Numbered from the stretch's first letter, positions 3,778 to 11,690 are shown. The stretch is 12,298 nucleotides of DNA from Candidatus Micrarchaeota archaeon (GCA_043803815.1 JAZDJR010000011.1:1-12298); one strand, 5' to 3'. Notes: a model not told the origin generated them from the sequence alone. Program-made: numbers and translations.

Positions 3778-4272
3778 ATGCCCACCCAATCGGAACGTCC
3801 AAACAAACCCGAAAAAAGCGAAGCGCAGAAACGCCGGCAAGAAAAAGCAAGAGGCACCATGCTAAAAAATATAGACGCCCGGCACTATTTTGAAAAACGT
3901 TTTAGGGCCCTGCCTGAAAGCCAGCGAATCCGAATATGGAATGAAATGACCGCGTTTGAAAAAGCGCTGCGCGAAAAATACCAGATACTTTTTCCGCTCA
4001 CTATCCAGCAAACCATCCAGCATCTTCCAACAAAAAGCAAAGAACGGGAAAGGGAATCCAAAAAAGAGCATAAAAGGCGATTCAAGGAACTGAGAGCATT
4101 ATCCCGCCTCACGGTCCAAAAGCACATTTTGTTTGAATTTTTGCCGCCCGGATTCAGAAGACAAGTTGAACAGGAACAAGTCCGCCAGCTGGCCAAAGAA
4201 CTGGCCGAAGCCGAGCAACGGCTCCAGCAAAGGGAGAATTCGCGCGACAAGAGACACCGCACCAGCGAATAA
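3778..4272 (+). CDS. Hypothetical basic, helical/coiled-coil protein (164 aa)
   Basis: Fills the gap between the divergent promoter and gatC; K/R/E/Q-rich; no recognisable motif. Confidence 0.7.
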   Translation: MPTQSERPNKPEKSEAQKRRQEKARGTMLKNIDARHYFEKRFRALPESQRIRIWNEMTAFEKALREKYQILFPLTIQQTIQHLPTKSKERERESKKEHKRRFKELRALSRLTVQKHILFEFLPPGFRRQVEQEQVRQLAKELAEAEQRLQQRENSRDKRHRTSE

Positions 4273-4329: not shown

Positions 4330-4626
4330 ATGCCATCCATCAAAGTGGACCGCGAATTGTTGTTGGCAGTAGCCAAAAATGCACGCTTAAAACTGACGGA
4401 ATCCGAAATCAAGGCGTTTTTGCCCCAATTCGCGGAAATACTCAAAGCCTTTGAAAAAATCGATTCCGTGGACATCAAGGGAATCGAGCCGGCTTTTCAC
4501 CCGATTCCGCTGCAAAACCGCTGGCGCGAGGATAATGTAAAACCCTCGATTACAAACGAAGAAGCGCTCCAAAACGCGGTCCAAAAAAAACCGCCTTATT
4601 TTAAGGGACCCAAAGCCATCGAATAA
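4330..4626 (+). CDS. gatC: Asp/Glu-tRNA amidotransferase subunit C
   Basis: VAKNARLKL..EI..F..IL..FEKID.VD...IEP..HP....N.WRED.V..S...EEAL.NA......YFKGP pattern; 98 aa, directly upstream of gatA. Confidence 0.93.
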   Translation: MPSIKVDRELLLAVAKNARLKLTESEIKAFLPQFAEILKAFEKIDSVDIKGIEPAFHPIPLQNRWREDNVKPSITNEEALQNAVQKKPPYFKGPKAIE

Positions 4627-4641
4627 AAAAAAGGGAACCGC

Positions 4642-6120
4642 ATGAAAACAAAAACAATTGCAGAATTCCGCGAATCCGTCCTGAACGGTTCAGTTTCAAT
4701 TGTTGAGCGCACGCACCAAATACTTGAAGAAATTAAAAAACAAAACAAAAAATTCCACCACTTCAATTTAATTTCCGAAAAAGAAGCGGTTGAACAGGCT
4801 GAACAGTTGGAAAAGAGAATCAAGCAAGAACAAAAAAAACAAAATCAAGGCGAATTGAAAAATTTATTGCTTTTGGGAGTGCCGCTTTCGGTAAAAGATT
4901 CCATTATCGTCAAAAGCGTTGAATCGCGCGCGGGAAGCGCAATCCTGAACGGATACATTCCCTTGTTTGACGCGACCGCGGTTGCCCGCGCAAAACAGCA
5001 CGGAGCCATCACCCTTGGAAAAACCTCGCAAGACGAATTCGGATTCGGGGCGTACAGCGTAAACGTGGGAAACGGATTCGAAATACCATTAAACCCGCTG
5101 GATGAAAAAAGAAGCACAGGTGGAAGCAGCGGAGGATGCGCAGGATTTACAACGCTCACCCAATTTTCGCACGTTTCTTTGGCGGAAAGCACGGGCGGAA
5201 GCGCGGTCTTTCCAGCCTCCTTATGCGGCTGCGCCAGCATCACGCCAACCTATGGCCGCATCAGCAGAAACGGCTTGATTGATTTTGCGAATTCCTTGGA
5301 CAAGATTTCACCCATGGGAAAAACAATCCACGAAGCCGCGGAACTGCTTGAAGCGGTTGCGGGCTTTGACGAAAATGACAGCACGAGCGCGGAGCAGCCA
5401 ACTGAAAAGTTTTCTTCTTTTGCAGGAAAACCAATCAAGGGAATGAAAATCGGGATTATTTCCGAATTCGAAAAAGAAGGAATCTTACCCCCAGTCCAAA
5501 AAGCCGTTTCTAACGCGGTTTCGGAACTCGAAAAACAAGGCGCGAAAACCCAAAAAATATTTTTGCCTCTCAATTCCGAATACGCGATTCCAACTTATTA
5601 CCTGCTTGCAACCTCGGAAGCCAGCACAAACCTGGCCAAATACTGTGGCATGCGCTACGGAGCCACAGAGCGCCTCGAAGGAAATTTCAACGAATACTTT
5701 TCAAAAGTGCGGAGCAAAAACTTTGGCGAAGAAGCCAAACGCAGGTTGCTATTAGGAACCTTTTGTCGCATGAGCGGTTTCAGGGACGCATACTATTTGC
5801 GCGCACTCAAAGTCCGCCAAAAAATGATTAATGAATTCCAGCAGGCATTCAAAAAAGTGGATATATTGGTCTGCCCCGTTGCCTCCACAATTGCCCCGAC
5901 TTTTGCAGAAATCAAGGAATGGACCCCCCTCCAGCATTATTACGCGGACCGCATGGTAAACCCCCCCAATGTATCCGGCTTGCCGCACGCATCCGTAAAC
6001 GTCGGCGAGCACCAGGGAATGCCGATTGGACTATTGTTGGTTGCGAACCACTGGCAGGAAACCAAACTTGTGCAGGTTGCCAGCGCCGTCGAAAAACCAT
6101 TGCGAGGCGATGCTAAATGA
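4642..6120 (+). CDS. gatA: Asp/Glu-tRNA amidotransferase subunit A (amidase signature family)
   Basis: SVKD (K85), GGSSGG (S162), STGGS (S187), PTYGRISRNGL, EASTNLAKYCGMRYG, FGEEAKRRLLLGTF; lies between gatC and gatB. Confidence 0.95.
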   Translation: MKTKTIAEFRESVLNGSVSIVERTHQILEEIKKQNKKFHHFNLISEKEAVEQAEQLEKRIKQEQKKQNQGELKNLLLLGVPLSVKDSIIVKSVESRAGSAILNGYIPLFDATAVARAKQHGAITLGKTSQDEFGFGAYSVNVGNGFEIPLNPLDEKRSTGGSSGGCAGFTTLTQFSHVSLAESTGGSAVFPASLCGCASITPTYGRISRNGLIDFANSLDKISPMGKTIHEAAELLEAVAGFDENDSTSAEQPTEKFSSFAGKPIKGMKIGIISEFEKEGILPPVQKAVSNAVSELEKQGAKTQKIFLPLNSEYAIPTYYLLATSEASTNLAKYCGMRYGATERLEGNFNEYFSKVRSKNFGEEAKRRLLLGTFCRMSGFRDAYYLRALKVRQKMINEFQQAFKKVDILVCPVASTIAPTFAEIKEWTPLQHYYADRMVNPPNVSGLPHASVNVGEHQGMPIGLLLVANHWQETKLVQVASAVEKPLRGDAK

Positions 6121-6914
6121 AGCTTTCGCACGAACTAAAAACAGCGATTGCGGCAGCCAAGGCTGCGGGCCAAATCCAGATGAAATATTTTGGCACTCCC
6201 CTGCGAAAAAAATTCAAGGAATCTCAGGACCTTGTAACGCACGTGGATTTTGAAGCTGAAACCAAAATCCTTTCCATGCTAAAAAAAGAATTTCCCGAAT
6301 ATGGGGTTTTATCCGAGGAAAAAGGCCGTTTGGAATCCGACTCCGACTACCAGTGGATTATCGACCCGTTGGATGGCACGTTTTATTATTCGCACAATTA
6401 CCCCGCTTTCGGGGTTTTAATCGCCCTGAAAAAAAAGAATTCGATTGAAATGGGGGTGAGTTTCCAGCCAAGCCAGAACATTCTGATGTTTGCCCAAAAA
6501 AACAAGGGAGCGTACCTCAACGGGAAAAAAATGAGGGTTTCCAAACAAAAAACCGAAAACGGCGCCTTGCTTGGATACAGCGATGCCCGCTTTAGCCTGG
6601 ATGCGGCACCAAAACCGTTTAACCAACTGCTCCAGAACTTTTTTTGGAGGACTGGAATACCGGCTTTTCCCGCGTTTTCCTATTTGTCCCAAGGCATTTT
6701 GGACGCGTACCTGTACAATTACATCCATTACAAAAAAAACACGGTTATGCATCCCTGGGACATTGCCGCCCACAAAATCATCGTGGAAGAAGCCGGGGGA
6801 AAATTCTCCAATTACAGGGGAGAAACCGATTTGGACAAAATCCAAAGCGTTGTTGCCGCCAACCCGTACTTACATAAAAAAATAATCAAACTTTTCAGAG
6901 GCGAAACAAAATGA
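6117..6914 (+). CDS. Inositol monophosphatase (FIG superfamily) paralogue 1
   Basis: DLVTHVD, SEE, WIIDPLDGT, PWDIAA, EEAGG motifs. Confidence 0.93.
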   Translation: MKLSHELKTAIAAAKAAGQIQMKYFGTPLRKKFKESQDLVTHVDFEAETKILSMLKKEFPEYGVLSEEKGRLESDSDYQWIIDPLDGTFYYSHNYPAFGVLIALKKKNSIEMGVSFQPSQNILMFAQKNKGAYLNGKKMRVSKQKTENGALLGYSDARFSLDAAPKPFNQLLQNFFWRTGIPAFPAFSYLSQGILDAYLYNYIHYKKNTVMHPWDIAAHKIIVEEAGGKFSNYRGETDLDKIQSVVAANPYLHKKIIKLFRGETK

Positions 6915-7705
6915 AGTTTTCCCACGAACTCGAAACTGCGATTCGCGCCACCAAAGCAGCGGGAAAAATTCAAATGAAATACTTTGGAAAGCCATTGGAA
7001 AAAAAGATGAAGGAAAAAAACGATTTTGCGACCCAAGCGGATTTTGAAAGCGAAAAGGCGATTATCAAAATTTTGCAAAAAGAATTTCCGGATTACGGAA
7101 TCCTTTCGGAAGAAAAAGGCGAAACCAAGGGGAATTCCGATTATCACTGGATTGTGGATCCCTTGGATGGAACGGTTTGCTATTCATACGGATTCCCTTT
7201 CTTTGGGGTTTTGATTGCGCTTGAAAAAAAGCAGAAACTGGAACTCGGCGTGGTGTACCAAACCGTTCAAAACGAGGCATTGGCTGCGCAGCGAAACAAA
7301 GGGTGCTTTCTGAACGGAAAAAAAGTGCAGGTTTCCAAAAGAGCCGAACTCCAAGAAGCATTCCTAGGATACAACGGAATCCGGGACCAGCTCAAAAAAT
7401 ACCCCGAACAGTTCCGCAATCTGCTGAATGCAGCCAATTGGAGAACAGGCGTTCCAAGCCTGCAAGGAACCATTAGTTTGTGCAGCGGGCAACTAGACAT
7501 TTTTTTGCAAAGCACGGGAAAATACAGAATCATGAAGCCATGGGACACCGCCGCCCCAAAAATAACGATTGAAGAAGCAGGCGGGGTTTTTTCCAATTAC
7601 CGCGGAGAAAAAGAGCTCGACAAAATCGATTTCTGGCTGGCAACCAACCAAAAACTGCATTCCAAAGTAATCCAAATATTGAACCCAAAGAAGGAAACCC
7701 CATGA
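6911..7705 (+). CDS. Inositol monophosphatase (FIG superfamily) paralogue 2
   Basis: DFATQAD, SEE, WIVDPLDGT, PWDTAA, EEAGG motifs. Confidence 0.93.
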   Translation: MKFSHELETAIRATKAAGKIQMKYFGKPLEKKMKEKNDFATQADFESEKAIIKILQKEFPDYGILSEEKGETKGNSDYHWIVDPLDGTVCYSYGFPFFGVLIALEKKQKLELGVVYQTVQNEALAAQRNKGCFLNGKKVQVSKRAELQEAFLGYNGIRDQLKKYPEQFRNLLNAANWRTGVPSLQGTISLCSGQLDIFLQSTGKYRIMKPWDTAAPKITIEEAGGVFSNYRGEKELDKIDFWLATNQKLHSKVIQILNPKKETP

Positions 7706-8511
7706 AACTCTCGCACGAACTAAAAACCGCAGTCTTGGCAGCTCGCTTGGCAGGAAAAATCCAGTTAAAGCAACTCGGAAAACCCCTGCAAAAAACAATG
7801 AAAGGGGAAAAAGATTTCGTAACCCAAGTCGATTTGGCCTGCGAAAAGGCAATTTTAGGCGTTCTTCAAAAAGAATTCCCGGATTATGGCATTCTGTCCG
7901 AAGAGAAAGGAACCGTTTCCGCTTCGGGCGATTATCGCTGGGTTGTAGACCCGTTGGACGGGACACTCCGGTATTCGCGGGGCATGGAAGGGTTTGGCGT
8001 GCTCATTGCGCTCCAAAAAAAAGGGGACACCATACTGGCGGTATTGCACCAACCGAACCAATCCAGCCTGTTGGTGGCTGAAAAAGGAAAAGGAGCATTT
8101 CACAATAACCACATGGTTCATGTTTCGGCTCAAAGCAACCTTTCCAAGGCAATCCTTTCCAATGATACGGTTCAATATTTCCTTGACCAGTATCCCGCGG
8201 GCTTCAAAAAAATCTATGACCAAGCCGCTTATCGAATTGCCACCCCTTGGTTAACAGCCATCACCAAAGTGTGCCGCGGCGAACTGGATATATTTTTAGG
8301 TGGATACCAAAAATACAGCCCAGCACAATCTTGGCTCATGAGCGCATGGGATGTTGCCGCGCCAAAATTTCTCATCGAGGAAGCAGGGGGCATTTTTTCA
8401 AATGCAAAAGGGGAAACTACGCTTGAAAAAATGGACTGCGTAGTTGCAAGCAACGGACACCTTCACCCCGCACTAATAAAGATACTGCAAGCCACCGGAG
8501 CAAAAGCATGA
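7702..8511 (+). CDS. Inositol monophosphatase (FIG superfamily) paralogue 3
   Basis: DFVTQVD, SEE, WVVDPLDGT, AWDVAA, EEAGG motifs. Confidence 0.93.
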   Translation: MKLSHELKTAVLAARLAGKIQLKQLGKPLQKTMKGEKDFVTQVDLACEKAILGVLQKEFPDYGILSEEKGTVSASGDYRWVVDPLDGTLRYSRGMEGFGVLIALQKKGDTILAVLHQPNQSSLLVAEKGKGAFHNNHMVHVSAQSNLSKAILSNDTVQYFLDQYPAGFKKIYDQAAYRIATPWLTAITKVCRGELDIFLGGYQKYSPAQSWLMSAWDVAAPKFLIEEAGGIFSNAKGETTLEKMDCVVASNGHLHPALIKILQATGAKA

Positions 8512-9899
8512 ACCTGAAATACGTTCCTGTGATTGGATTGGAAATCCACGTTCAATTGCACACCAATTCCAAATTGTTCTGCGGTTGCTCAACCAAAGGA
8601 ATCGAACCCAATTCCGCAACCTGCCCGATTTGCCTCGGCCATCCCGGTTCCAAACCGGTTTTGAACAAAAAAGCCTTGGATTATGCCCTGAAAATCGCCA
8701 TGGCTCTCAATTGCCAAATCAACGAATCTTTTTCGTTTTCGCGCAAAACATACTTTTACCCGGATTTGAGCAAGAATTACCAAATTACGCAGTACGAGCT
8801 TCCCATCGGCCAAAATGGATTCCTTGAATTGTCCAGTGGAAAAAAAATCCGCATCACCCGCGTTCATTTGGAAGAAGACCCCGCAGCGCTCATCCACGAA
8901 AATAGTTGCTGCCTCGCGGACTACAACCGCTCCGGCATCCCCCTTGCGGAAATCGTCACGGAACCAGACCTTGCATCCCCATCCGAAGCGCGCGAATTCA
9001 TGGACCGCCTGCTCAATCTGCTGAATTTTTTGGAAGTGTTCAAGCTCGGCGAAGATACCTTAAAAGCGGATTCCAACATTTCGCTCAAAGGAAGCGAAAG
9101 GGCGGAAGTCAAAAACGTTTCGGGTTTTCGCAACATTGAAAAGGCATTGCAGTACGAAATCGAGCGCCAAACCAAAATGCGCGACGAAAACGAAAAAATT
9201 TCGCGCGAAACCCGCGGGTTCAACGAGGAACGCCAAACCACCTACCTGCTCCGCAAAAAAGAATCCGAAGAGGATTACGGCTATATTTTCGAGCCCGACT
9301 TGACCCCGTATCGCTTGTCCAAAAAGGATTTAGATGAAATCAAAAAAACCATTCCCGAGCTCCCCGCCCAAAAAAGCGCAAGATTCCAAAAACAATTCGG
9401 TTTAGCCGCGTACGACGCCAATGTTTTGTGCGCGAGCAAAAAGCTTTCGGATTTGTTTGAGGAAATTGCAAAATCGGTTTCCCCAAAAACAGTTTCGGTT
9501 TTTTTGACGCGCGAAATCCTTGGAATCGTGAATTACAACAAACTGGAGCTGGATTCCGTCGAATTAAACGCGGTTCATCTAACCGAACTATTGCAATTGC
9601 TCGAAAACAAAAAGGTTTCCGAAAAAAACGCAAAAGAAGCCGCAATCCATTACGTGCTGGAAAAAACTCCCCCAAAAACCTATTTGGAAAAGCAAAACCT
9701 GCTCATGGACACGAATTCCATGGATGCTGAAAAGATTGTTGAAAAAATCCTTGTCCAAAACCCCAAAGCGGCTGAAGACTTGAAAAGCGGAAACCCCAAA
9801 AGCCTCAACTTTTTGGTGGGGCTTGTGATGCGCGAAACCAAGGGAAAGGCGAACCCCCGCGAAATACAAAAAATGATTGAAAAAAAAGTGAAAAAATGA
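8508..9899 (+). CDS. gatB: Asp/Glu-tRNA amidotransferase subunit B
   Basis: IGLEIHVQL..SKLFCGC, CPICLGHPG, RKTYFYPDL.KNYQITQY, HLEED, DYNRSGIPL.EIVTEPD, EVKN, C-terminal FLVGLVMRETKGKANP (Yqey-like). Confidence 0.97.
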   Translation: MNLKYVPVIGLEIHVQLHTNSKLFCGCSTKGIEPNSATCPICLGHPGSKPVLNKKALDYALKIAMALNCQINESFSFSRKTYFYPDLSKNYQITQYELPIGQNGFLELSSGKKIRITRVHLEEDPAALIHENSCCLADYNRSGIPLAEIVTEPDLASPSEAREFMDRLLNLLNFLEVFKLGEDTLKADSNISLKGSERAEVKNVSGFRNIEKALQYEIERQTKMRDENEKISRETRGFNEERQTTYLLRKKESEEDYGYIFEPDLTPYRLSKKDLDEIKKTIPELPAQKSARFQKQFGLAAYDANVLCASKKLSDLFEEIAKSVSPKTVSVFLTREILGIVNYNKLELDSVELNAVHLTELLQLLENKKVSEKNAKEAAIHYVLEKTPPKTYLEKQNLLMDTNSMDAEKIVEKILVQNPKAAEDLKSGNPKSLNFLVGLVMRETKGKANPREIQKMIEKKVKK

Positions 9900-10414
9900 G
9901 CCCAAAGCCGTTTAAAATTCCCCCGCCTGCCCGAACACCCTTCGGCCGCTTTTTTCAGGAGCGCCGCATACAAAAAATAAAAGCCAAGCGCTTGGCCCCT
10001 CCTTTTTCATTGAAGCGCTTTGAAAACCGCATGCGCTTTGTTGCCGAACAGCTTCAAACCATCCACGACACACAACTCGGCGAACAGCAAAACTGGTCCG
10101 AATGGATGCAGCGTTTCAATATACTCAAAAAAAAATCCGGCTTTGAACTAAACCTGCGCGACATCCTGCAAACCACCGTTGAAATGGAAGAAACCGCGCG
10201 GGAAACGGATAAAGAACTGTCCGGAATCGGGAAAAAAATCAGGATAATTAATAAATGGCTGAAAGCCAACAATCCCCCCGAAAACCAAAAAAGACAATTA
10301 CCCCAAAGAGTGTTTCAGGCAATTCAAATCCTGCGGGAACTTCAAAAGCGGCAGGCCGAATGGAAAAAAACCCTTGCCACCAACGCCGCGAAGTTCGCGG
10401 CAAAGGGCAATTAA
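9896..10414 (+). CDS. Hypothetical basic helical protein (172 aa)
   Basis: ATGA overlap with the gatB stop; Pro/Arg/Lys-rich N-terminus followed by amphipathic helices; no recognisable family. Confidence 0.75.
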   Translation: MSPKPFKIPPPARTPFGRFFQERRIQKIKAKRLAPPFSLKRFENRMRFVAEQLQTIHDTQLGEQQNWSEWMQRFNILKKKSGFELNLRDILQTTVEMEETARETDKELSGIGKKIRIINKWLKANNPPENQKRQLPQRVFQAIQILRELQKRQAEWKKTLATNAAKFAAKGN

Positions 10415-11153: not shown

Positions 11154-11690
11154 ATGTGGCCCGGCAACGAACCATTGGAATTGGATACGCGGAACAAATT
11201 GTACAAAATAATCGAAAAATCGCCCGGCTTGCATTTTCGCGAAATCCAGCGCCGAAGCGGCCTTGCGGTCGGCGCACTGCAATATCACCTTGATTATTTG
11301 CAGAAACGAAGCTTTGTTTCGGTTCAAAAAGAAGGAAAATTCGTCCGCTATTATGCCCTGCGCACCAAAAAAACCGTCGAGAACAAGGGCCTGATGTCCT
11401 TGCTGCGCCAGGAACAGCCGCGCCACATCCTGCTTTTTTTATTGCAGCGAAAATTTGCGGCCAACGAGCGCATCGCCGAAGCGGTGAACCTTTCGCAATC
11501 CACGACGTCAACGTACCTGAAAAAAATGCTGGAAAGCGGGGTAATCGAGCGGAAAAAACAGGGGCGCAAAATCATTTTTTTGGTTGTCAATAAGGGCCAG
11601 GTCGCGGAGCTGTTAAGTCAGTACAAAAAAAGCTTTTTGGACGAACTCGTGGACAATTTTGTCGATGTCTGGCAGACCGTCGGAAAATAA
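11154..11690 (+). CDS. Archaeal double winged-HTH transcriptional regulator (COG3398-like / ArsR-related)
   Basis: HTH1 IEKSPGLHFREIQRRSGLAVGALQYHLDYL; HTH2 NERIAEAVNLSQSTTSTYLKKMLESGVIERKKQGR; C-terminal SFLDELVDNFVDVW. Confidence 0.88.
   Translation: MWPGNEPLELDTRNKLYKIIEKSPGLHFREIQRRSGLAVGALQYHLDYLQKRSFVSVQKEGKFVRYYALRTKKTVENKGLMSLLRQEQPRHILLFLLQRKFAANERIAEAVNLSQSTTSTYLKKMLESGVIERKKQGRKIIFLVVNKGQVAELLSQYKKSFLDELVDNFVDVWQTVGK

Follow-up and report, generated by a model that had tools for sequence, protein, structure and literature searches.

Three divergent IMPase-family genes between gatA and gatB in a Candidatus Micrarchaeota archaeon

Introduction

Why does a 1-Mb archaeal genome keep, in the middle of its genes for the amidotransferase GatCAB, three diverged copies of an enzyme for which it seems unable to produce the classical substrates? 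The question is raised by contig C11 of a Candidatus Micrarchaeota archaeon (JAZDJR010000011.1, assembly GCA_043803815.1), on which three genes of the inositol monophosphatase (IMPase) family, called copies 1–3 below, part gatA from gatB. The window analysed is the entire contig of 12,298 bases, and the assembly (G000) comprises 1.08 Mb in 36 contigs and is 85.6% complete; G003 is its nearest sampled relative, and L numbers designate fetched loci. GatCAB and the Asn-transamidosome are well studied and have, to our knowledge, no phosphatase partner. An original prediction, made from this DNA alone, stated that no link between IMPases and GatCAB was established, and the titles and abstract openings of papers found by literature searches likewise mention no link of IMPase with GatCAB, asparaginyl-tRNA synthetase (AsnRS) or aspartyl-tRNA synthetase (AspRS).

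What a survey of relatives adds to that prediction is an ancestral single IMPase, an RNase Z-like partner, a link to aspS/asnS in genomes without GatCAB, the lack of IMPase in 40 of 100 GatB genomes, and a slot that can also hold GNAT, DUF218 or LAGLIDADG genes. This has broader implications, in that an IMPase and an RNase Z-like diesterase are kept as a pair in or beside the Asp/Asn-tRNA genes in many families of the order, even in genomes that have AsnRS. Either this is a clean case of housekeeping passengers in a reduced-genome translation operon, or it betrays an unrecognised step tied to tRNA(Asn) charging. Kept as they are by a 1-Mb genome, the three copies are a promising place to look for a new specificity in a family that has been annotated heavily. 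On balance, if only just, we think that they are hydrolases of small nucleotide- or sugar-derived phosphoesters, co-expressed with the amidotransferase and not part of it.

Three intact paralogues within a gatCAB unit

The genes gatC and gatA, the three IMPase-family genes, gatB and an orphan gene run head to tail on the + strand (open reading frame (ORF) calls; Table 1), their identities agree in Pfam and NCBIfam profile searches, and GC content is level throughout the gat–IMPase unit. An ATGA start/stop overlap is found at all five junctions from gatA through the orphan gene, which includes the internal junctions and the coupling to both neighbours (gatA/copy 1 and copy 3/gatB) that the original prediction had pointed out. 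The co-transcription by design that it also proposed is consistent with this layout: gatC-gatA-IMP1-IMP2-IMP3-gatB-orf172 would be transcribed as one unit in which the IMPase genes are translationally coupled. The three paralogues are indeed intact, with open full-length frames that match PF00459 at 154.8–176.2 bits (cut-off 27) and cover profile positions 3–268 of 271, and they are the only IMPase-family matches in the assembly.

The host unit has gatC, gatA and gatB, the last with its catalytic and YqeY domains. No AsnRS is found above cut-off in G000 (best match to the asnS model 106 bits vs 342.6), so GatCAB should make Asn-tRNA(Asn). The best NCBIfam match of gatA is TIGR00132, at 409 bits below a cut-off of 481, and a second PF02934 match in the genome fits GatE, GatE-type matches beside GatB being seen in relatives as well. 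Gene order and identity are those of canonical gatCAB and aspS–gatCAB operons, from which the unit differs in that gatA and gatB are parted by 1–3 IMPase genes or, in relatives, also by genes of the metallo-β-lactamase (MBL) fold, GNAT and others.

The copies are 53%, 45% and 49% identical in pairwise protein comparisons (overall range 45–54%), and a repeat finder detects them in a 794/791-nt register at only 66–80% nucleotide identity. This level of identity speaks against recent gene conversion, and copies so different cannot have been made by an assembly artefact. A stretch common to copies 2 and 3, LQKEFPDYGILSEEKG, is spelled with synonymous differences, as the original prediction had noticed, which affect 9 of 16 codons, and the purifying selection that it suggested is borne out by the proportions of nonsynonymous (pN) and synonymous (pS) differences, 0.31–0.38 vs a saturated 0.73–0.79 (dS is saturated in every comparison, and pN vs pS is reported in place of dN/dS). 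Against G003, dN is 0.40–0.52 for the IMPases, compared with 0.20 for gatA, 0.22 for gatC and 0.14 for gatB. As far as substitutions can tell, the copies are under long-term purifying selection, but they evolve 2–3 times faster than GatA, GatB and GatC.

A kept metal site and a probably remodelled pocket

The motifs E67-E68, D83-P-L-D86-G-T88 and W-D are invariant in copies 1–3, as the original prediction had noted for E67, the D83–T88 stretch and WD, and these metal/catalytic motifs align with those of relatives and of bacterial SuhB. Copy 2, the only copy modelled, yields a confident AlphaFold2 model (pLDDT 94.6, pTM 0.92) with the predicted alpha-beta-alpha-beta-alpha sandwich fold, which Foldseek superposes on Pseudomonas aeruginosa SuhB (8wdq) at a TM score of 0.90, and the fold search with this model returns 275 PDB matches at E ≤ 0.001, SuhB/IMPase at the top. 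Bacterial SuhB/IMPase proteins are also the nearest solved sequences (E 6e-34).

In IMPases, the R-x-G-S/T-A-A-L motif, a downstream Glu and WDxAAG line the inositol/phosphate pocket. According to the alignment, the clade formed by the G000 and G003 proteins no longer has R-x-G-S-A-A-L, the next Glu or the WDxAAG Gly, all of which are retained in the order's typical slot IMPases and in bacterial SuhB. The window copies also carry a 5–8-residue insertion ahead of the WD motif. Bacterial SuhB (8wdq; Escherichia coli 6ib7/2qfl) is thus alike in fold, in being the best solved sequence match, in length (~265 aa) and in its EE, DPxDGT and WD metal motifs, but it is only 28–30% identical to the copies, which have these pocket residues replaced, are archaeal, stand three in tandem and are embedded in gatCAB. 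We know of no archaeal counterpart of the SuhB Nus-factor role. The copies are best described as predicted SuhB-like, metal-dependent phosphomonoesterases of the IMPase fold, with a kept metal site and a probably remodelled pocket. They appear to form a divergent, triplicated subfamily of a known superfamily, in an operon context that is conserved and apparently undescribed.

Family scores and missing pathways

None of the specific families within the superfamily fits. The top NCBIfam model for all three copies is HisN (TIGR02067), which scores 158–172 bits, below its cut-off of 275; inositol-1-monophosphatase (NF008027) scores 104–127 bits (cut-off 332), fructose-1,6-bisphosphatase (FBPase)/IMPase (NF009321) 92–108 bits (264), CysQ 80–92 bits (229) and the NADP phosphatase/NAD kinase type (NF010678) 40–66 bits (493). 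The match to the solved HisN structure (5yht) is no better than E 2.6e-14. The archaeal IMPase/FBPase type (MJ0109/AF2372, NF009321), which belongs to the same superfamily and is the usual annotation of archaeal IMPase-family genes, is far more distant than the bacterial type (E ~1e-12; 1lbv family E 2.6e-12).

The genome itself, at 85.6% completeness, seems to offer little for such enzymes to do: myo-inositol-1-phosphate synthase (MIPS; PF01658; the control search matched 6 of 14 named genomes), NAD kinase (PF01513), histidinol dehydrogenase (PF00815), class V FBPase and class 1 FBPase, which is present in some relatives, were not found in G000, and adenosine-5'-phosphosulphate (APS) kinase gave only a marginal match of 25.6 bits. 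By these scores the copies would not be genuine inositol monophosphatases, HisN, CysQ or NADP phosphatases, and the pipeline labels 'inositol monophosphatase' and 'histidinol-phosphatase' for these proteins are probably wrong. As an aside, the weak PF00459 matches in 300–330-aa frames of several relatives, among them G035, are class 1 FBPase-like (267 bits, below cut-offs).

An ancestral IMPase in the gatA–gatB slot

The survey covered the genomes of this phylum (215, of which 196 belong to the order of the window) and bacterial control loci. A gatB locus was fetched for 100 genomes with a GatB-type gene, genes were labelled by tblastn and Pfam, and all ORFs of the 100 loci were clustered, Pfam being run on one representative per family; the window and G003 are counted apart. 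The genomes are metagenome-assembled genomes (MAGs) that are 55–99% complete, and absences are provisional. At least one same-strand IMPase lies between gatA and gatB in 48 of the 100 loci; it is followed by an MBL-fold gene in 14 of these and doubled in tandem in four. Nine other loci have an MBL gene and no IMPase, 11 a GNAT acetyltransferase, three only a YbaK-type insertion in GatB and one an empty gap of 326 nt, gatA is directly followed by gatB in 25, and no gatA is in view in three. In single loci, the slot also holds a DUF218, LAGLIDADG or unknown gene. Three further cases of a slot IMPase beyond the 48 are G000, G003 and G092, whose slot is split over two contigs. The insertion is therefore not private to one genome with dN/dS near 1, the outcome that the original prediction had named as fatal, but present in 48 of 100 loci of the order, in the window and in G003.

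Three slot copies are found only in G000, and two in four relatives (G093, G094, G095 and G109). In G003, whose order is aspS-hyp-gatC-gatA-IMPase-gatB, with a single slot IMPase, GatA is 74% and GatC 70% identical to the window's, and GatB 82% over 117 aa. Outside the phylum, gat genes lie within 4 kb at none of 80 bacterial IMPase loci among the matches listed (SuhB-like genes found on genome contigs via the universal W-x-x-D-P-x-D-G-T pattern), and a scan of metagenome contigs with copy 2 gave 309 pattern matches, with no relative among them. One IMPase in the gatA–gatB slot is ancestral and widely kept in the order, and what is specific to the lineage is the triplication alone. Typically, the cluster reads aspS-gatC-gatA-IMPase-(arm-less RNase Z-like/YhfI-type phosphodiesterase)-gatB-(UPF0047).

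Among the 94 genomes with an IMPase (E ≤ 1e-20), the gene is in the gat slot in 51, beside aspS/asnS in 17 and elsewhere, or on too short a contig, in 26. Of the 100 GatB genomes, 40 have no IMPase match anywhere, and a GatB-type gene is lacking in 33 genomes with an IMPase, which means that neither needs the other. Flanks were annotated at nine of the 'elsewhere' loci, and five have a named neighbour: EamA, phosphoglucomutase/phosphomannomutase (PGM/PMM), a sugar nucleotidyltransferase, a CDP-alcohol phosphatidyltransferase or aspartate carbamoyltransferase (ATCase). Only unknown genes flank the IMPase in L009, L020 and the short contig L015, and the ninth locus, L018, belongs with the aspS/asnS loci described below.

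Several loci are irregular. In G008, IMPase (profile positions 9–230 of 271) and GatB (GatB_N from position 40) share one 676-aa frame. This frame was considered as a Rosetta-stone fusion and rejected, as the IMPase lacks its last ~40 and GatB_N its first 39 profile positions; the adjoining gatA is without its first ~130 residues, the MAG is 76% complete, and the locus is probably damaged or misassembled. In G003, a short frame overlaps the IMPase stop by ATGA and reproduces the GatB N-terminus in its first 16 residues; behind it come an inverted repeat and, ~100 nt further on, the true gatB start, and the junction looks like the scar of a rearrangement. The slot GNAT acetyltransferase (~160 aa, family f10) occurs twice in L110 and together with a LAGLIDADG endonuclease gene in L104, and the slot of L068 holds a DUF218 gene. 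A GatB_N gene of G060, with its usual neighbours not in view, scores 400.9 bits vs at most 331 elsewhere in the order, and may be a contamination or a transferred bacterial gene.

Recurrent partners of the cluster

The slot MBL gene (~250 aa) is matched by RNase Z models in two pieces, with the arm segment skipped, and also by a cyclic-nucleotide phosphodiesterase model, all scores being below cut-offs; its nearest solved relatives are YhfI-like (1zkp, 6kns). It lies between IMPase (or gatA) and gatB in 23 of the 100 loci, and it also adjoins IMPase in AsnRS-type clusters. This YhfI-type, arm-less RNase Z-like protein (1zkp, 6kns; NF041851), the usual neighbour of the relatives' slot IMPase, is missing from the window, and the only MBL of G000, a distant one, is on contig C31. 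A diesterase and then a monoesterase would make a plausible two-step pair, in which the MBL protein could feed the IMPase.

A long bacterial-type AspRS with a GAD domain (589 aa) is encoded upstream of gatC in 60 of the 100 loci; its gene is still there in G003 and is on another contig in G000, and a short archaeal-type AspRS is found in AsnRS-type relatives and in G092. The YjbQ-like protein UPF0047 (133 aa), encoded downstream of gatB in 35 of the 100 loci and after IMPase in the asnS cluster of G031, is a second recurrent passenger of the cluster.

In 14 of the 100 loci, GatB itself carries a YbaK/ProX-type tRNA_edit domain (PF04073, E 1e-19 to 1e-24), either N-terminal or inserted after about residue 30; Pfam verified it in five fused proteins and in a free-standing one encoded just upstream of gatB (one locus). 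In G000, a YbaK-like gene stands by itself on contig C4. The long GatB frames (614–650 aa) had been candidates for inteins, and Pfam shows the YbaK-type domain instead. We know of no earlier description of a GatB–editing-domain fusion, and the titles and abstract openings of papers found on YbaK contain none.

Linkage where AsnRS replaces GatCAB

AsnRS is above cut-off in 78 of the 196 genomes of the order. Among 20 candidate loci chosen by coordinate proximity, not at random, are 17, from genomes without a gat slot, in which the IMPase lies beside aspS or asnS. Eleven of them (family f27, L210–L220) have the order aspS?-MBL-IMPase-(AsnA-like, 332 aa)-asnS, the aspS being uncertain. The others read aspS-asnS-IMPase-UPF0047 (G031), aspS-asnS-IMPase-MBL (G027), aspS-asnS-IMPase (G015), asnS-IMPase (G175), aspS-IMPase-MBL (G007) and IMPase on the opposite strand, adjoining asnS (G181). 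AsnRS, the archaeal-type AspRS and asparagine synthetase A pass their curated NCBIfam cut-offs. This arrangement (L210–L220, L221, L222, L223, L225, L229) suggests an in-place takeover, in which the direct Asn pathway displaced the indirect one inside a single inherited cluster, and it includes a reversal of gene order, from IMP-MBL in gat operons to MBL-IMP in family f27. In L018, which is counted with the f27 aspS/asnS loci, the neighbours of IMPase are an MBL gene and an AsnC-type regulator. A 513-aa frame in G027 had looked like an IMPase::MBL fusion; Pfam finds only MBL there, and the IMPase is a 265-aa ORF of its own in another frame.

History of the three copies

Two trees were built, a quick one with 79 IMPases and a careful one with 25. 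Copies 1–3 and the G003 slot copy form one clade in both (support 99 and 100/99), and the careful tree resolves it as (copy 1,(copy 2,(copy 3, G003))), with supports of 96/85 and 99/96 and copy 1 branching first. Copy 3 is the probable orthologue of the single slot IMPase of G003. With the G003 copy as sister to copy 3, the two duplications are probably older than the divergence of G000 and G003, in which case G003 would have lost two copies. The best tree does not show the three window copies as monophyletic, but their monophyly is not rejected (approximately unbiased (AU) test, p 0.125). The two-copy relatives each have one canonical and one divergent IMPase, which fall in different clades of the quick tree.

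Weighing the explanations

The reading that we narrowly favour, and to which the description of the copies given above belongs, is one of inheritance and co-expression. The IMPase would have resided in, or travelled with, the Asp/Asn-tRNA cluster for a long time, for the most part together with a phosphodiesterase. The window lineage would have lost the phosphodiesterase from the cluster and then duplicated the IMPase twice, probably before the split from G003, after which the copies would have diverged fast, keeping their catalytic metal site and remodelling their substrate pocket. They would act on small phosphomonoesters, most plausibly nucleotide- or sugar-derived salvage products, with the substrate range split among the three, and their expression would be tied to a constitutive Asn-tRNA operon, much like that of adenylate kinase in ribosomal-protein operons. 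They would be neither GatCAB subunits nor genuine inositol monophosphatases. A complex prediction for GatB with copy 2, from alignments of 25 rows each, has a score of 0.00 and speaks neither for nor against an association. Several points tell against this co-expression reading: (i) a 'nucleotide or sugar phosphate' substrate is deduced from the fold, the diesterase partner and pathways missing from an incomplete MAG, (ii) faster evolution and a lost motif could mean decay of function, (iii) an IMPase(+MBL) link that outlasts both the change from GatCAB to AsnRS and an inversion of order exceeds what inertia easily explains and hints at a direct link and (iv) the YbaK editing domain on GatB in 14 relatives is a sign that the cluster recruits true tRNA-related accessories.

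The last two points lead to the main rival, direct coupling, which we regard as doubtful but worth keeping in mind: the IMPases, with the RNase Z-like diesterase where there is one, would work on tRNA or aminoacyl-tRNA in the course of Asn-tRNA formation, by removing 2'/3'- or cyclic phosphates at tRNA 3' ends, by clearing a nucleotide by-product of AspRS, AsnRS or GatB, or as a transamidosome accessory or scaffold, in the way that SuhB has a second role in bacterial rRNA antitermination. The IMPase is inside gatCAB or beside aspS/asnS in 68 of the 94 IMPase-bearing genomes, the link survives the replacement of GatCAB by AsnRS plus an AsnA-like protein as well as the switch between IMP-MBL and MBL-IMP, the MBL partner is an RNase Z paralogue, the same clusters have editing domains fused to or inserted in GatB, and the closest solved relatives of the copies include SuhB in RNA polymerase/Nus complexes. 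However, 40 of the 100 GatB genomes do without an IMPase, 26 IMPase genomes keep the gene elsewhere, many of them in metabolic contexts such as those named above, the MBL protein is without the tRNA-binding arm segment of RNase Z, the one frame that combines IMPase and GatB (G008) is cut short at either side and belongs to a damaged locus, and in-place replacement within an inherited cluster could explain the asnS linkage. We also know of no IMPase-family enzyme that acts on RNA ends. A more elaborate proposal combines the IMPase fold, the arm-less RNase Z-like diesterase, UPF0047 and the GatB-fused YbaK domain into an as yet undescribed maintenance module for tRNA 3' ends or aminoacyl-tRNA, built on Asn-tRNA synthesis. 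The substrate of the IMPase would be an RNA end bearing a phosphate, or a nucleotide that the Asx-tRNA enzymes leave as a by-product, and the three copies would be specialised versions, or hetero-oligomer subunits, that arose after loss of the diesterase; we judge it rather unlikely.

The original prediction had left a choice between a functional module and a phosphatase panel using a housekeeping promoter. That choice remains, but one form of the panel, in which inositol-1-P, fructose-1,6-bisphosphate, pAp, NADP(H) and histidinol-P are split among the three copies, is decidedly unlikely, as no pathway context is found and the copies have lost the inositol-binding motif. A classical panel would agree with the family to which the copies belong and with their intact catalytic site. 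IMPase-family enzymes are promiscuous, NCBIfam scores are best for the HisN, IMPase, FBPase/IMPase and CysQ models, riboflavin synthesis is named as a role in one PDB title from the fold search, and no dedicated FBPase is found in G000. Against it, all NCBIfam scores are far under their curated cut-offs (HisN 158–172 vs 275, for example), MIPS, NAD kinase and histidinol dehydrogenase are not found, APS kinase is marginal, and the substrate-binding GSAAL motif and Glu are gone from all three copies; the case is tempered by the incompleteness of the genome, which makes pathway absences provisional. Still more improbable, in our view, is that the copies are decaying duplicates, drifting since loss of the diesterase, with one or more of them non-functional. 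Their dN is 2–3 times that of flanking genes, their Pfam scores are the lowest in the order (154–176 bits vs ~180–255), pocket motifs are lost and residues inserted before the WD motif, and G003 keeps one slot copy only. Yet all three frames are full length with preserved ATGA coupling, the metal ligands are invariant, pN is less than half of saturated pS, the predicted fold of copy 2 is of high confidence, and the duplications are probably old, so dead copies should be gone from a 1-Mb genome.

Features and other genes of the window

Table 1. Genes of the window (first ten rows, window positions) and coordinates at loci and contigs of relatives or elsewhere in G000.
Feature	Position	Strand	Matches and remarks
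Surface-type protein, >1236 aa	1-3708	-	Laminin_G_3, GH123_N and TSP3 domains; cut by contig end
Hypothetical gene, 164 aa, upstream of gatC	3778..4272	+	ORF
gatC	4330..4626	+	PF02686 E 2.5e-18; TIGR00135 79.2 bits > cut-off 47.1
gatA, amidase subunit	4642..6120	+	PF01425 E 9.8e-101
IMPase-family paralogue 1, 265 aa	6117..6914	+	PF00459 E 7.9e-46; ATGA overlap with gatA stop
IMPase-family paralogue 2, 264 aa	6911..7705	+	PF00459 E 1.3e-51; ATGA overlap with copy 1
IMPase-family paralogue 3, 269 aa	7702..8511	+	PF00459 E 4e-45; ATGA overlaps with copy 2 and gatB
gatB	8508..9899	+	PF02934 (GatB_N) E 3.9e-94; GatB_Yqey PF02637 E 5e-33; NF004012 551.7 bits > cut-off 338
Orphan gene, 172 aa, last of unit	9896..10414	+	ORF; ATGA-coupled to gatB
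Double winged-helix regulator	11154-11690	+	HVO_0163-type N-terminal helix-turn-helix
Slot MBL gene (examples)	L025:1880-2635, L029:2834-3589(-), L076:5343-6101
Long AspRS with GAD domain (example)	L116:3863-5632(-)		589 aa
Long AspRS in G000	C10:1902-3683
UPF0047 downstream of gatB	L071:4937-5338; also L008:2249-2668		133 aa
GatB with YbaK domain	L031:4682-6526, L041:6055-7932, L067:1467-3323(-), L068:4140-6041, L113:1417-3348(-)		also L050, L069, L076, L116-L121
Free-standing YbaK just upstream of gatB	L070:2700-3245	-	1 locus
Slot GNAT acetyltransferase	L085:6003-6485, L104:4536-5027, L112:6055-6558, L117:5406-5879		and 7 further loci
Short frame after IMPase stop, G003	L204:5766-5865		ATGA overlap
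IMPase-GatB single frame, G008	L071:2886-4916		676 aa
GatB_N gene of G060	G060:C1:1588-2454		400.9 bits
Class 1 FBPase-like frame (example)	L226:1569-2459	-	weak PF00459 match

A scan of the 12,298 bases found neither tRNA genes nor Rfam families. The 164-aa hypothetical gene matches no Pfam or NCBIfam family, has a weak homologue in G003 between aspS and gatC (30% over 89 aa) and appears to have a TATA-like box of its own, a candidate. The orphan 172-aa gene, likewise without a Pfam or NCBIfam match, has a single homologue (67% identity) among 5.8 billion proteins, and its Atlas model is a predicted helical bundle with no usable relatives; the idea of a hidden YbaK or GNAT protein there is unsupported by profile, homologue and model searches. 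Beyond the unit, the family of the double winged-helix regulator also occurs downstream of gatB in 15 relatives.

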